A stretch of 21,466 bases of DNA. It comes from a virus (taxonomy: Duplodnaviria > Heunggongvirae > Uroviricota > Caudoviricetes). The stretch covers positions 1 to 21,466 of the IMG/VR virus record IMGVR_UViG_2703718792_000016; one strand, written 5' to 3'. Of the stretch, positions 1,393 to 18,249 are shown piece after piece. The notes under the pieces were generated by a model. That model made no database searches, had not been told where the DNA came from, and saw only the letters and a list, made by a program, of their open reading frames with translations. Each line of letters begins with the position of its first letter. Position 1 is the first letter of the stretch. The position numbers and the translations under genes are program-made.

Positions 1393-2031
1393 TTAAATAT
1401 CTTGTTGAATTTTAAAGCATACGCCCAATATGCAAGATAGATCATCCAGCATAATTGAAGGGTAGCGAGGATTCGTGGGGACTAAAAGAATATCCGGCCC
1501 TTCTATCTCCAGTTTACGAATGACAGGTGTTGTGGTCCCTTTGGGTAAGGCAAGGACAATATTTCCTGGTTGTACGGTTCGATCGGGATCAACAAAAACT
1601 GTTGAACCATTTGGAATGGAAACTCCCCCACCAGATGTTGACATACTGTCACTCTCTAGAACAACTGCAAAGGTATTGGCCGGGATTTCTCCGACAAGCT
1701 GCACACAAGAGGTTATTGAGGAATTTTTCATATAATCACTCCAGCTTGCTGCCTGCTGAAGTGATAGTAGCGGAACCGTTTTTATCGGCGGTAAAGATAG
1801 ATCAAGCGAATCACCTGTATTTAACTCTCCTCCATTAAGAAGCCAATTTTCGTTTACTTTCAATATCTTTGCCAGTGAACTTATGTAACGCGAGGACGGC
1901 GCTCCTCCACCGTTCATCCATTGACTTACGGAGCCTTTTGATGCGCCAGTGGCATTGACAAGGTCTTTGCCTTTCAGGTTTAGCGCATGCATACGTTGGG
2001 TTATGCGTTCAGATATTGTTTGCTTGCTCAT
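1393..2031 (-). CDS. cI: CI-like prophage repressor (N-terminal HTH, C-terminal S24 LexA-like autopeptidase domain)
   Basis: 212 aa; N-terminal HTH-like segment (...GASKGSVSQWMNGG...), C-terminal SDSM motif and downstream Lys typical of the S24 Ser-Lys dyad; divergent from a cro-like gene. Confidence 0.85.
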   Translation of the reverse strand: MSKQTISERITQRMHALNLKGKDLVNATGASKGSVSQWMNGGGAPSSRYISSLAKILKVNENWLLNGGELNTGDSLDLSLPPIKTVPLLSLQQAASWSDYMKNSSITSCVQLVGEIPANTFAVVLESDSMSTSGGGVSIPNGSTVFVDPDRTVQPGNIVLALPKGTTTPVIRKLEIEGPDILLVPTNPRYPSIMLDDLSCILGVCFKIQQDI

Positions 2032-2846: not shown

Positions 2847-3917
2847 ATGGCTAACGCCTGGCTCAGATTATGGCATGACATGCCAAATGACCCTAAGTGG
2901 CGAACAATTGCCAGGGTGTCAGGGCAGCCAATTGCAACAGTGATGGCAGTGTATATCCACCTCCTGGTGAGTGCGTCACGAAATGTCACGCGAGGTCACA
3001 TTGATGTCACGACAGAAGATTTGGCAAGTGCGCTCGACGTGACAGAAGAGGTAATTGATTCAATTTTGCAGACGATGCAGGGGCGGGTACTTGATGGTGA
3101 TTTAATCACTGGATGGGAAAAACGCCAGGTGCTTAAAGAGGACAACGGCAATATTTCGCAAACCGCAAAATCTCCTGCAGAGCGCAAGAGGGCGCAGCGA
3201 GAGAGGGAAAGAAAGCGGGAACAAAATGGCGATTGTCACGGCGCGTCACGAAATGTCACGCACATGTCACGACGAGTCACGACAGATAAAGATACAGATA
3301 AAGATACAGATCAAGAAGATCAAAACACTATGGTCCATGGCGTAAAAAACGCCACGAACCAGGCAGGGGATGTTCAGACCGTCAATCCTGGTCAGCCAGC
3401 AGGCACGACACCGGAAGCCGATTCAGCGTATGCGCTGAAAGCCGATTCGGGCGCTGTGCAGCAGGCGATGACCGCAGGGTCGGAGCAATCACACCAACTG
3501 CAGCAGCCTGAAGCCGATTCCGCCATTCAGCGGGAAGCCGATCGGGTAGTCCCGAAAAACACCGGGCAGCCTGTGGGACGAGTGGATTATCCGGATGTGT
3601 TCGAACAGATCTGGCGGGAGTACCCGTTGCGTGCCGGGGCAAACCCGAAGAAATCCGCTTTCAGTGCCTGGAAGGCCAGATTACGCGAGGGGGTGCCACC
3701 AGAGGCCATGCTGGATGGCGTGAGGCGTTACGCAAGATACCTAGCGGTTACCGGGAAAACGGGAACGGAATTTGTTCAGCGGGCGACGACGTTTTTTGGA
3801 CCGGACCGGAATTTTGAAAACCCCTGGTTGCTCCCGGTAAGCGGCACGAACAACCAGCGTTGTGTGAATCATATTTCTGAACCGGATACCGAAATTCCGC
3901 CGGGCTTCAGGGGGTAA
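2847..3917 (+). CDS. replication initiation / replisome organiser protein (lambda O-like role) carrying its own iterons
   Basis: 356 aa from the ATG at 2847 (GAGGTGA upstream); low-complexity acidic/Q-A-P-rich linker; two clusters of phased GTCACG repeats inside the coding sequence, as the lambda ori lies inside O. Confidence 0.7.
   Translation: MANAWLRLWHDMPNDPKWRTIARVSGQPIATVMAVYIHLLVSASRNVTRGHIDVTTEDLASALDVTEEVIDSILQTMQGRVLDGDLITGWEKRQVLKEDNGNISQTAKSPAERKRAQRERERKREQNGDCHGASRNVTHMSRRVTTDKDTDKDTDQEDQNTMVHGVKNATNQAGDVQTVNPGQPAGTTPEADSAYALKADSGAVQQAMTAGSEQSHQLQQPEADSAIQREADRVVPKNTGQPVGRVDYPDVFEQIWREYPLRAGANPKKSAFSAWKARLREGVPPEAMLDGVRRYARYLAVTGKTGTEFVQRATTFFGPDRNFENPWLLPVSGTNNQRCVNHISEPDTEIPPGFRG
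2974..3011. repeat. iteron cluster 1: four GTCAC(G/A) copies at 10-11 bp phasing
   Basis: Copies start at 2975, 2985, 2995 and 3006; the 17-mer CGTCACGAAATGTCACG (2974-2990) is repeated exactly at 3244-3260. Confidence 0.55.
3235..3330. repeat. iteron cluster 2 (five GTCACG copies at 10-11 bp phasing) plus adjacent A/T-rich tandem repeat; candidate origin of replication
   Basis: GTCACG at 3235, 3245, 3255, 3266, 3276, followed by ACAGATAAAGAT tandem copies and an A-rich stretch (3282-3330); same architecture as lambda ori (iterons then AT-rich). Confidence 0.55.
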
Positions 3918-3957: not shown

Positions 3958-4383
3958 GTGGCAAAAGTTTTTACACAAGAAGAGCGGGAAAAAATTAAAG
4001 GGCAGGTTGTTGAACTTGTACGCCAGAGTGGGCGCGAGACGTTACGGCAACTGGAAGCCAAGACAGGTGCGACAAGATATCTGATGAGTGTTCTCGCCAG
4101 AGAGCTGGTTGCCAGTGGCGGTGTATACAATTCTGGCTACGGGTTATTCCCGTCTGAACAGGCTCGTAAAGACTGGCAAAACGCCCGCAAAAAATTATCG
4201 AGGGCAAAGCTGAAGAAACCGGTTGTGGTTGATCCTGACCTTATATGGTCATTACCAGATGGAGAAATACGTCGCTACGACAGGCACCTGAATATAATCT
4301 GTCGCGAGTGCCGGGAGAGCGAAGTTATGCAGCGCATACTGGCATTTTATCAAGGAAATGTTAGGTATTTTAGACGTTACTAG
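3958..4383 (+). CDS. hypothetical protein (141 aa), GTG start, immediately after the replication gene
   Basis: ORF with AGGAGG Shine-Dalgarno directly upstream of the GTG; basic, Cys-containing C-terminus; no family recognised. Confidence 0.55.
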   Translation: MAKVFTQEEREKIKGQVVELVRQSGRETLRQLEAKTGATRYLMSVLARELVASGGVYNSGYGLFPSEQARKDWQNARKKLSRAKLKKPVVVDPDLIWSLPDGEIRRYDRHLNIICRECRESEVMQRILAFYQGNVRYFRRY

Positions 4384-4611: not shown

Positions 4612-5118
4612 TTATTTCTTTGCAGCCAGAATCAGGCCGTCAAGCCACTCCTGGTGACCATTGAGCATTGGGTTCGGACGAGTATTTGCCAGGTCTTTTG
4701 CTGGAACTCCGTTCTGCGTTTCCTGTGTCAGGATACGGAGTCTGTTACCCGAGAGTTCCTCCAGTAGCCACGCATGATGAACATCTAGGCGTTGTACAGT
4801 ATCTTTTTCACCGGACCATCCGTGCCATGCCAAACGAGCAGGTTTACCTTCAGTAGGTGGAATAAATTCCACGACCTGAGCTTCAACCGGAAATCCAAAT
4901 GTGCTGAAGTAAAAGCGCACGCCATTTTCCAGCTCCGGACCTTTATTGTTATAAAAGCGCACATCTGCTGAATTTTTATAGTATTCCGGCCATAGTAATG
5001 GCTGACTAAGGAGTGGCCAAACATCATTGATGTTCAGACCGGAGATGATCATTTCATTAGACACAAAGTTATCAGTAAATCCCGGAACAAAGCCTTCTGG
5101 CCAGTGAATAGCGTTCAT
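4612..5118 (-). CDS. SRPBCC (Bet v1-like / polyketide cyclase-like) superfamily protein, cargo gene
   Basis: 168 aa from the ATG at 5118 (GGAGG upstream); the track ORF start at 5130 is a TTG extension. Superfamily call from overall sequence character, not a search. Confidence 0.6.
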   Translation of the reverse strand: MNAIHWPEGFVPGFTDNFVSNEMIISGLNINDVWPLLSQPLLWPEYYKNSADVRFYNNKGPELENGVRFYFSTFGFPVEAQVVEFIPPTEGKPARLAWHGWSGEKDTVQRLDVHHAWLLEELSGNRLRILTQETQNGVPAKDLANTRPNPMLNGHQEWLDGLILAAKK

Positions 5119-5253
5119 AAATGCCTCCAATTGCGGTAGTTAATTGTACTGGGTTTGCTGCGTTACGACCGCAACACGATGGCAGTGATTATTAGCGCAA
5201 TGAAGTTATAAGGCGAATTATGATTACTTATAATCTTAATAAGATAAATTATA

Positions 5254-6162
5254 TCAGGAGCCAGTATCTTGGCTAACTTCTACGCATAAAGCCCGAATCC
5301 ACTGATGGCTAGGGTCACGATGAGTTCGTTCATGCCAGGCCATACTCTTGGTAAAGCCCGGAACTTTCAGGGGCAAAGGGAGTATGATTAGATCGTTGTT
5401 AGTCAGGACCATGCGGTGGGGGACAACAGCGATCATATCAGTCACTTGCAATATATCAGGAACTACTTGAAAACTATTAACTGACATGCCTACTCGTCGT
5501 GTCAGACTGAGCTTAGCCAGTGCTTCATCTGTAACACCGGAGAAGCTACCTTCTGAAGACACCAGAATATGTTCCTGTTTGCAAAATTGTTCGAGAGTCA
5601 TTTCTGAATTCGCTGACAACGGATGATTCCGTCGTGCTATGCAAACATAATCTTCTTCATAAAGTGCTCTGCCGTGCAGCTCTCCGGGAGTGGTTTGTGG
5701 TGTTACCAAAGCCAGATCAACTTCTCCCTGAGATAACTGCTGATATATTCGTTTATTGTCTACAGGCCGCACAGAGATTTTAATATTCGGTGCTCGATGT
5801 TTCAGCGCAGCCATCAATGGGACAACAACAGCCTTAACTGCATAGTCCGTTGCGACAATGGTATAAGTTAGTTCTGCCGTCATGGGGTCAAATTTACTTG
5901 GTTTCAGCAGAATCGTGATATCGGTGAGAATTTGTTTTACCGGCATAGCAAGTTCTTTAGCACGGAGTGTGGGAACCATACCGTGACTGGTGCGAACAAA
6001 GAGAGGATCGCAAAAATAATCACGTAATCGAATAAGCATGCCACTGACAGCGGGCTGCGTCAGGGAAAGTCGCTGCGCAGCCCGAGTCACGCTTCCCTCA
6101 TCCATTAACGCATCAAAGGTCTTAAGTAAGTTAAGGTCGAGGGTTTTGATATCATTTTTCAT
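5254..6162 (-). CDS. LysR-family transcriptional regulator
   Basis: 302 aa; N-terminal HTH signature (...LNLLKTFDALMDEGSVTRAAQRLSLTQPAVSGMLIRLRD...) and a C-terminal substrate-binding-type domain of typical length. Confidence 0.9.
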   Translation of the reverse strand: MKNDIKTLDLNLLKTFDALMDEGSVTRAAQRLSLTQPAVSGMLIRLRDYFCDPLFVRTSHGMVPTLRAKELAMPVKQILTDITILLKPSKFDPMTAELTYTIVATDYAVKAVVVPLMAALKHRAPNIKISVRPVDNKRIYQQLSQGEVDLALVTPQTTPGELHGRALYEEDYVCIARRNHPLSANSEMTLEQFCKQEHILVSSEGSFSGVTDEALAKLSLTRRVGMSVNSFQVVPDILQVTDMIAVVPHRMVLTNNDLIILPLPLKVPGFTKSMAWHERTHRDPSHQWIRALCVEVSQDTGS

Positions 6163-10750: not shown

Positions 10751-11043
10751 AAACAACCTCTTGTTTGTTGGGTTGGGGTTATCATACATGACTGCTTGTT
10801 GCGATTTTGCATCGTAATGTTTCTGTTTGTTGTCTTTTGTGTTGTTTGTCTCTTTAGTGTTCTGTGTGTGACTATGTACACTCTGTATAGTGGGGGCTCC
10901 CGTTGGTGCAGAGAATAACGAAATCTGAAAATAACCGTTTTCAGTTGTGGCGCCCGCAACAAAAGCGCATGCTGACTGTGCGAAGATAATCCCGCTGTGA
11001 CGAGTAATCTCGAACGTCATTGTTTTCATTTATGCCAGTTACC

Positions 11044-12642: not shown

Positions 12643-13107
12643 TGTTTTGTTATAAAGGTGTTGATGGTTGTGTTAGGGGGGATTTAACAAAAAGCCAGTT
12701 CTGGACTTTATAGTGTGCTCAGATCATGGCCAAAAACGATTTCTGTGATAAATATTTTGAATATTATTTACAGGTAAATGACGTGGGTCGCATGAATGAA
12801 AATATTACAATAGAGTATTAAGTATATGCTCATATTGTATGGGCTGAGAAGGCAAAACACGGTAATTCCTTATGTTGCTGTGATACCTGATTGGCAGAAT
12901 AGTTATTTGGTCTTGAGTATATAGTCAGCGTTTTTTGTTCAGTAATAGATCTTTCAGTTAAAAACAATAAATAGCGTGATTATTTCTGTTTGTTATTTGT
13001 ATTTTTGTTTGTTGTTTTATTGTCTTTCTGTGGAGGGGGGAGTATTGTTCCCTTATTAAGGGCAGGTAAATTTAGAATGGTAATCTGTAGATAATTGGAG
13101 GTCACTT

Positions 13108-14671: not shown

Positions 14672-18249
<3,578 letters not shown>

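Follow-up and report, generated by a model that had tools for sequence, protein, structure and literature searches.

A set of short, helically phased DNA repeats and an A/T-rich tract beside them, found in IMG/VR virus record IMGVR_UViG_2703718792_000016 (positions 1 to 21,466; this whole stretch of 21,466 nucleotides is called the window here), most probably constitute the replication origin of a lambdoid Escherichia coli prophage, placed inside the gene of its own initiator protein. The window is a lambdoid E. coli prophage, and the gene that hosts the repeats was found at the position of lambda O. The prediction is based on this initiator-family gene at the O position, the non-random repeats, their conservation at the DNA level, the co-variation of the two repeat clusters and the A/T-rich tract. 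The element is best read as one of the iteron-plus-unwinding-element kind, with repeats, an adjoining A/T tract, a location in the initiator gene and co-evolution at the DNA level all present. A preliminary description of the DNA had already put the region forward as a candidate origin, and this interpretation survives computational tests of the gene family, of DNA-level selection, of co-variation and of the conserved tract. The features of the predicted origin are located as follows.

2847–3917, plus strand: replication initiator ("phage replisome organizer") gene of 356 amino acids, with ATG at 2847, stop at 3917 and a GAGGTG Shine-Dalgarno sequence just 5′ of it.
2974–3011, plus strand: iteron cluster 1, four direct hexamers (GTCACG at 2975, GTCACG at 2985, GTCACA at 2995 and GTCACG at 3006) at steps of 10, 10 and 11 base pairs (bp).
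3038–3043, minus strand: inverted hexamer, a tenth copy, reading GTCACG on the minus strand and lying in the codons of D64-V65-T66, the turn of the helix-turn-helix (HTH).
3234–3281, plus strand: iteron cluster 2, five direct GTCACG hexamers (3235, 3245, 3255, 3266 and 3276) at steps of 10, 10, 11 and 10 bp.
3282–3329, no strand assigned: A/T-rich, purine-skewed tract, consisting of 2.9 copies of ACAGATAAAGAT followed by CAAGAAGATCAAAACACT, with two GATC sites, and encoding TDKDTDKDTDQEDQNT.

Eight of the nine direct GTCAC copies were found to be GTCACG, the copy at 2995 being GTCACA, and the two clusters were found to be separated by about 230 bp. The start positions and the 10–11 bp spacing given for the nine GTCAC(G/A) copies in the preliminary description were all correct, and the tenth, inverted copy at 3038–3043 was added here. 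The 17-mer CGTCACGAAATGTCACG, described earlier as an exact duplication, was found in exactly two copies, at 2974 and 3244, and nowhere else (0 expected). The spacing of this duplication, 270 bp, is in frame, so that the peptide ASRNVT is encoded twice. The repeats as a whole had been described as in frame, which holds for the 270-bp duplication but not for the hexamers, since these occupy all three codon phases; likewise both ASRNVT peptides had been placed in the linker, where the second copy does lie, whereas the first was found in the folded N-domain at residues 43–48. Cluster 1 encodes A43-T55 (ASRNVTRGHIDVT), covering the end of helix 3 and the loop ahead of the HTH; the codons of C130-T145 in cluster 2 and the tract after it belong to the disordered linker.

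The hexamer GTCACG was found 24 times in the window against 9.2 ± 3.0 times in shuffles. The longest chain of any 5-mer at steps of 10 or 11 nucleotides, with both strands searched, contained five members in the window, and the same search in 200 dinucleotide shuffles gave a longest chain of two members in 187 and of three members in 13. No phased array other than the two GTCACG clusters was found in the 21-kb window. Several other signals were considered and set aside. The RNA fold over 2960–3340 was no better than that of shuffles (z = −0.39); GATC sites numbered 58 against 79 expected in the window, the pair at 3309 and 3318 being not unusual and not used as evidence; and promoter and terminator signals were about as numerous as in shuffles, and a −35-like GTGACA on the minus strand is simply the complement of the iteron.

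For the examination of codon choice, DNA was fetched for 39 homologous loci, one genome per species, from diverse Proteobacteria. The loci were found with two search patterns, and the pattern WHDMPND, which is independent of the hexamers, is present in every gene used, so that codon choice was not selected by the search. The N-terminal ~125 residues were found to be 60–75% identical in homologs of Enterobacterales, Pseudomonas, Bordetella, Acidovorax, Chromobacterium, Stenotrophomonas and others. Alignment of the proteins shows that the hexamers encode exactly those residues that are invariant in ASRNVTRGHxDVT, together with a conserved linker island, CHxxSRxVTTDKD; the linker around this island is otherwise variable and poorly conserved. 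The hexamer is read as S-R (nnG TCA CGn), as V-T (GTC ACn) and as G/C-H (nGT CAC), which together make up the three codon phases.

The codons of cluster 1 were compared in the 22 genes that keep the peptide, the GC content of which ranged from 0.42 to 0.68; pairwise amino acid identity over the N-domain block, calculated for 21 of them, had a minimum of 63% and a median of 73%. These genes were found to contain conserved Val GTC (22/22, against a same-gene background of 20%), Thr ACG (22/22; 24%), Gly GGT (22/22; 16%), His CAC (22/22; 60%) and Ser TCA (21/22; 16%) codons, and the Arg codon between the hexamers was found to vary freely (CGA 9, CGT 6, CGC 6, CGG 1). As a control within the genes, 44 conserved, codon-degenerate columns of the N-domain were taken. 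A single codon was found in six of the eight columns that overlap hexamers and in none of the 36 others, and the mean frequency of the top codon was 0.96 in hexamer columns against 0.54 elsewhere (Mann-Whitney p = 1e-5). Cluster 2 of the homologs was found to contain conserved GTC-ACn for V-T (35/35), TCA for the Ser of S-R (33/36) and nGT-CAC for x-His (28/31), the hexamers being distributed over the three codon phases as 28, 37 and 35. At the inverted copy, Val65 was encoded by GTG in all 19 GTCAC-type genes that keep D-V-T (background 38%). Hexamers present in three phases, with fixed synonymous sites and free neighbours, are not explained by conservation of a repeated peptide, and the codon data indicate that the hexamers are under selection as DNA, independently of the protein code.

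The architecture was also found to be conserved. Counted from the W5 codon, the positions of cluster 1 are fixed at +116/126/136/147 in about 25 homologs, and in nearly all genes of the GTCAC type; an inverted GTGAC was found at +180 in most homologs of this type. Cluster 2 of the homologs contained three to five hexamers, mostly three or four, at steps of 10–11 bp. The window cluster 2 is 21 bp (two hexamers, seven codons) longer than that of three-copy homologs, and the copy number was found to shift in such 21-bp steps both there, between the window and most homologs, and in cluster 1 of locus L084. A step of this size preserves the frame of translation as well as the phase on the helix. 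The GTCACG consensus, which the preliminary description had proposed to look for in related genes, was found in both clusters of most of them, with phasing of 10–11 bp in nearly all. In the remaining types both clusters change together. The loci of Pantoea (L104), Enterobacter (L108), Marinobacter (L114) and Sphingomonas (L116) contained GTAACG in both clusters, and L111, L113 and L115 contained CGAACG in both, at +118/128/138 and +346/356/366. At the inverted copy of L108, a synonymous change of the Val65 codon, GTT in place of GTG, turns the inverted hexamer into GTAACG. A protein-level regular-expression proxy for the array found both signatures in 41 of 107 family representatives, and was discarded as too strict because many other representatives plainly carry SQ/SH/CH variants.

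The A/T-rich tandem copies and the A-rich stretch reported earlier after cluster 2 are borne out by Tandem Repeats Finder (TRF), which found 2.9 copies of ACAGATAAAGAT at 3282–3316, and by base composition. The 48 nucleotides at 3282–3329 have a GC content of 29% against 54% for the gene, include its lowest-GC part and are 71% purine on the top strand. Directly 3′ of cluster 2, almost all homologs were found to contain an (A/T/C)AGATAAAGATAAAGA-like sequence, and in ~30 of 38 genes, including genes of 65–68% GC, the 40-mer with the lowest GC content in the gene starts no more than ~12 nucleotides from the last cluster-2 hexamer. The tract words (A)GATAAAGATAAAGA were found to be conserved across sub-families with different iteron types. 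The tract at 3282–3329 is a candidate DNA-unwinding element and helicase entry site. One further feature was found directly to its right.

3331–3361, no strand assigned: imperfect palindrome TGGTCCATGGCG-TAAAAAA-CGCCACGAACCA, with 10 of 12 Watson-Crick pairs by reading.

This palindrome was found in the terminator-like scan (13 pairs when G-T is counted) and in the fold of the single-stranded DNA, and it is also kept in phage PhiR5_2, which shares this part of the gene. The lambda origin has an inverted repeat to the right of its A/T-rich region, of which the palindrome is reminiscent, and it may, with low confidence, be part of the origin. Loci L084 and L088, which have other C-terminal modules, contained a different palindrome at the same position, GCGCACGTGCGC or GCGCATGTGCGC, preceded by CCCCACACA, and the latter sequence is also common to L116. 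Further downstream, the recurring motif with PEADSA-like segments that had been noted before proved to be RAAGCCGAT, present in four copies within 3414–3542 (starts 3414, 3438, 3510 and 3534; spacing 24/72/24; 0.4 expected). All of them lie in one codon phase (E/K-A-D) and encode PEADSA, LKADSG, PEADSA and READRV in the acidic low-complexity segment, so that a repeat at the peptide level suffices as explanation. These repeats are retained in PhiR5_2 with one synonymous difference (GCA for GCC).

The C-terminal modules were found to differ among relatives right after the tract, which is what one would expect of a single specificity unit made up of the N-domain and its sites. Only from ~residue 133 on is the gene common to the window and PhiR5_2; the N-domain of PhiR5_2 is unrelated, its C-terminal module is the same and a DnaC-like gene follows its initiator gene. 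PhiR5_2 (L001) contained three exact copies of AGGGGCTTC, namely two direct copies 11 bp apart in the part coding for the N-domain (2085–2104) and one inverted copy in the linker (2338–2346), followed by a purine-rich (CAGGAA)n tract (2365–2400). The statistics are weak, 28 of 200 shuffles reaching three AGGGGCTTC matches at no more than one mismatch, and it is only suggestive that PhiR5_2 may have the same origin architecture with a different motif. Two distant N-domain homologs, of Serratia (L119, 1501–2691) and Pantoea (L120, 1501–2805), contained neither the hexamers nor the (GATAAA)n tract; an inserted segment replaces the linker, and ACTACG repeats were found around +313 to +346. The insert of L119 alone gave a weak, sub-threshold match (E = 0.004) to MUG113, which we take to be a GIY-YIG-related family. 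A different initiation strategy may be used on the same scaffold in these two.

The protein was found to contain a winged-helix N-domain (residues 1–95), a helix (110–127), a disordered linker (~129–165), an acidic low-complexity segment, a small helical C-domain and a DnaT-like tail. The N-domain models as a DnaD-like winged helix, and its residues 5–123 align with positions 1–119 of the 121 positions of Pfam PF09681 Phage_rep_org_N, named "N-terminal phage replisome organiser" in Pfam, of which G38P of SPP1 is presumably the type member, at 16.5 bits (cutoff 23.3) and E = 0.0085. No match of the N-domain to the Pfam lambda O-family models was found even at E ≤ 10, nor did the window protein match the DnaT DNA-binding domain PF17948 at this threshold. 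That domain is present after the tract in the sister E. coli alleles P0017 and P0064 and in many other relatives. The C-domain of the window protein is of a helical type distinct from PF17948, its AlphaFold2 model has a predicted local distance difference test score of 52, its PHROG label is "DnaD-like helicase loader", and the homologs found for it were mostly truncated or frameshifted E. coli fragments. The protein ends as follows.

3855–3914, plus strand: C-terminal tail QRCVNHISEPDTEIPPGFRG, the last 20 residues, almost identical to the C-terminal end of DnaT from E. coli; not origin DNA.

In a phmmer search of the PDB, the tail matched the last 22–24 residues of the DnaT chains 6aep, 2ru8 and 9zbt_D (E = 0.002–0.01), and it also matched positions 156–179 of the NCBIfam DnaT model. 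The same DnaT-like tail was found at the end of several relatives with otherwise different C-domains. The tail QRCVNHISEPDTEIPPGFRG is thus a candidate for a short DnaT-mimicking motif that may contact the host primosome. In the parts consulted, the preprimosome paper PMC13377028 does not mention the tail or the last residues of DnaT or say what they do.

In the mechanism proposed, the N-terminal winged helix would bind the GTCACG hexamers, with five sites at cluster 2 and four direct sites and one inverted site at cluster 1, and the presence of one hexamer per helical turn would line up the bound protomers on one face of the DNA. The two arrays would probably cooperate by looping or wrapping of the ~230 bp between them, giving a nucleoprotein complex comparable to the lambda O-some. 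The resulting strain, together with transcription through the gene from pR, would open the adjoining purine-skewed (GATAAA)n tract, and the C-terminal part of the protein would then recruit host DnaB/DnaC; neither a helicase nor a loader is encoded in the window, and the DnaT tail recurs at the end of the protein. The gene's own product as the binder, the tract as the site of unwinding and the mode of helicase recruitment are what we infer from these sequences.

Several points weigh against the origin interpretation. Binding, unwinding and initiation are all read from sequence. The core of 6 bp, perhaps 7–8 bp with flanks, is far shorter than classical iterons. The match of the N-domain to PF09681 lies below the Pfam cutoff, its structural matches are generic winged helices, and the C-domain is without a confident model, which makes the helicase-recruitment step speculative. 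As cluster 1 falls within the codons of a folded domain, constraints on protein and on DNA are entangled there. DnaA boxes (TTWTNCACA, at most one mismatch) numbered 36 in the window against 38 expected, and none was found in the origin core. The codon bias of the tract (Asp GAT:GAC 123:4 within it and 388:377 outside) is partly circular, because the tract was picked by minimum GC. Three AT-rich homologs (L110, L112 and L117) keep the tract and show no clear hexamer.

The arrays may instead be protein-binding sites for control, whether for autoregulation, for titration or handcuffing as in incompatibility, or for another phage or host protein, with the start site elsewhere, which we consider unlikely. 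The conservation and co-variation of the DNA show a sequence-specific reader only and not its downstream role, and cluster 1 is without an adjoining A/T tract. In plasmids, two-cluster iteron arrangements often divide initiation and control, with titration and handcuffing by inc iterons. However, cluster 2 is followed by a conserved, A/T-rich and strand-skewed tract in almost every homolog, whatever the GC content of the host, and this is the signature of an unwinding element and not of an operator. The arrays also travel with the gene into unrelated hosts with different neighbouring genes, which makes its own product the simplest binder, and no further phased array was found in the 21-kb window. 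The two roles are compatible, and a control role is possible particularly for cluster 1.

A much less probable alternative is a recombination joint as the main role of the conserved DNA, above all of the (GATAAA)n tract where the domains meet, through which lambdoid phages would swap N- and C-terminal modules of the replication gene. The C-modules, DnaT-like or other, do change directly after the same tract, PhiR5_2 shares the gene from ~residue 133, and the tract words are kept across sub-families with different iterons; but a joint leaves the helical phasing, the fixed synonymous sites of cluster 1 and the concerted switches of the hexamer unexplained. Module exchange at the origin is a known by-product in lambdoid O genes, and recombination at the tract is probably a consequence rather than its function. 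That the repeats are a mere repeated peptide (ASRNVT or SR-VT) or an mRNA feature with no function as DNA is scarcely credible, and the tests of codon choice and of folding effectively refute it. In its favour, the 17-mer duplication keeps the reading frame, gives ASRNVT twice and encodes residues that are invariant in the protein alignment; but the hexamer is read in three phases (S-R, V-T and G/C-H) and once on the opposite strand, synonymous positions are fixed inside the hexamers and free beside them, the RNA fold is ordinary (z = −0.39), and cluster 2 lies in a disordered and otherwise poorly conserved linker.

The interpretation as an origin may, with low probability, be extended beyond a lambda-like element in two ways. 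One is self-encoding specificity, and the other is an initiator that works in two steps like DnaA and hijacks the restart primosome of the host. Within cluster 1 lie the codons of the Arg/Asn/Thr/His-rich loop SRNVTRGH beside the HTH; the same peptide is encoded again by cluster 2, in the linker. Where the hexamer changes among GTCACG, GTAACG and CGAACG, the encoded peptides change too, while the HTH helices stay similar. Should the SRNVTRGH loop make contact with the hexamer, one stretch of DNA would be both the site bound and the element that reads it, and specificity switches would be intrinsically coupled. In the two-step reading, if true, the winged helix would act on the duplex hexamers, and the DnaT-like C-terminal parts would engage the (GATAAA)n strand and PriA/DnaB-DnaC. 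These parts consist of a full DnaT domain in the sister alleles and of the DnaT tail only in the window protein. Such a hijack of the restart primosome would explain the absence of a phage-encoded loader.

The iterons of lambda are about 19 bp long. The lambda origin lies centrally within the O gene, where iterons that are each an inverted repeat are followed by an A/T-rich tract, and variants of Stx phages contain six iterons, the two extra ones adding 13 amino acids (PMC7466680). The layout of the repeats and tract had been described earlier as the same as that of the lambda origin inside O. This stands for the general plan, in that iterons are followed by an A/T tract, within an initiator gene and in the same orientation. 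Both the lambda origin and the predicted one come after cII in the pR operon, the repeats precede the tract in the direction of transcription and the region encodes a flexible inter-domain part. As in lambda-type origins, extra iterons add in-frame residues (13 amino acids per two iterons in Stx phages, 7 per two hexamers in the window), and the N-terminal specificity module is exchanged together with its sites. The likeness does not extend to the details. The window protein is not an O homolog by sequence; the single cluster of four inverted-repeat iterons of lambda is replaced by a non-palindromic 6-bp core that is directly repeated every 10–11 bp in two clusters ~230 bp apart, with an inverted copy in addition; cluster 1 lies within the coding sequence of a folded DNA-binding domain; and no P-like loader gene follows.

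The oriL of phage SPP1 lies in gene 38 and contains repeated "AB boxes", bound by G38P, beside an A/T-rich DNA-unwinding element; G38P is without an AAA+ domain and also binds a second, separate region, oriR (PMC5737612). The predicted origin of the window resembles that of SPP1 in its place within the initiator gene, in its repeats with an A/T-rich tract and in a second region of presumed binding. However, SPP1 has its own helicase G40P and loader G39P, neither of which is encoded in the window, the second array of the window is ~230 bp away in the same gene and not elsewhere in the genome, and the repeat sequences are unrelated. The iterons of plasmids are ~17–22 bp long, with a spacing of ~22 bp, and lie outside the rep coding sequence. 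In contrast to iteron plasmids (P1 RepA, F RepE, RK2 TrfA and pPS10 RepA), the period in the window is one helical turn, the arrays are coding, and the replication module is essentially absent from true plasmids. Among host proteins, DnaD resembles the fold of the N-domain and DnaT resembles the C-terminal tail, with the DnaT domain present in the sister alleles; no specificity for iterons is known for DnaD or DnaT, and neither is encoded by DNA that also contains the sites it binds. The searchable literature yielded no account of this origin, and it is best read as a hitherto undescribed form of an ordinary type of element, with short phased hexamers, two clusters and no phage-encoded loader.

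The gene order of the window contains an S24/HTH CI-like repressor gene (1393–2031, minus strand), a P22-Cro-like gene, a YdaT/cII-like gene, the initiator gene and a DUF977/Ren-like gene, followed farther downstream by HNH/NinG-like, RusA, Q, lysis and head genes. The initiator gene sits within the early-right operon, after the repressor, cro and cII-like genes, and its nearest downstream neighbour is the following.

3958–4383: DUF977/Ren-like (LygF) gene, next after the initiator gene; not P, DnaC or a helicase.

No helicase or helicase loader was found to be encoded across the 21-kb window, and no P-like gene was found 3′ of the initiator gene. Two leftward open reading frames lie between the replication and nin-like regions, 4612–5130 (minus strand, 172 amino acids), which had no PHROG match, and 5254–6162 (minus strand, 302 amino acids), which matched PHROG 3736, annotated as of unknown function; both look like moron cargo. 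The other tandem repeats found by TRF were an 18–19-nucleotide T-rich unit in 2.1–2.3 copies at two sites (10824–10861 and 12980–13023) and a 21-nucleotide unit in two copies in the large-terminase region (15396–15437).

The product of the initiator gene was found to match PHROG 3729, "replication initiation protein", over the full length of its 356 amino acids (E = 4e-254), and "phage replisome organizer" is the NCBI name for its close relatives. Copies of the gene with 93–97% identity were found in deposited phage genomes (Tritos, Evi and several vB_Eco isolates), where they are labelled "DNA replication protein O", "primosomal protein I" or "N-terminal phage replisome organiser"; the label "DNA replication protein O" in GenBank phage records reflects position and not homology. 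The replication module was found at a coverage of at least 80% in 1647 of 5426 complete E. coli genomes (~30%), where the usual label is "hypothetical protein". The N-domain family contained 2238 clusters at 50% identity across Proteobacteria (exhaustive search, E ≤ 1e-3). The plasmid database PLSDB gave 11 matches only, all prophage-like or phage-like, and these provide no independent proof of replicon function. A circular Pseudomonas element of 50.9 kb was found to contain the same origin layout, with the gene between cII and a DnaB-like helicase gene. The pairing of the origin module with a DnaB-like helicase in Pseudomonas belongs to locus L122.

For this family, the analysis gives predicted cis elements of the origin at the level of base pairs, namely the consensus of the hexamer, both arrays and the tract at which unwinding would occur, and it names the natural specificity variants GTCACG, GTAACG and CGAACG. 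They may be used for the annotation of origins in prophages, for the reading of prophage induction and marker-frequency data, for the design of phage-derived replicons, and for studies of how host DnaB is recruited by a phage without its own loader. Origin-based interference is known for phage-encoded resistance and is a possible use in design. An origin at the O position is what specialists would expect; the evolutionary evidence for it is unusually clean and the module is very common. The overlap of the protein and DNA codes is also unusually clean, with one hexamer read in three frames and on both strands.

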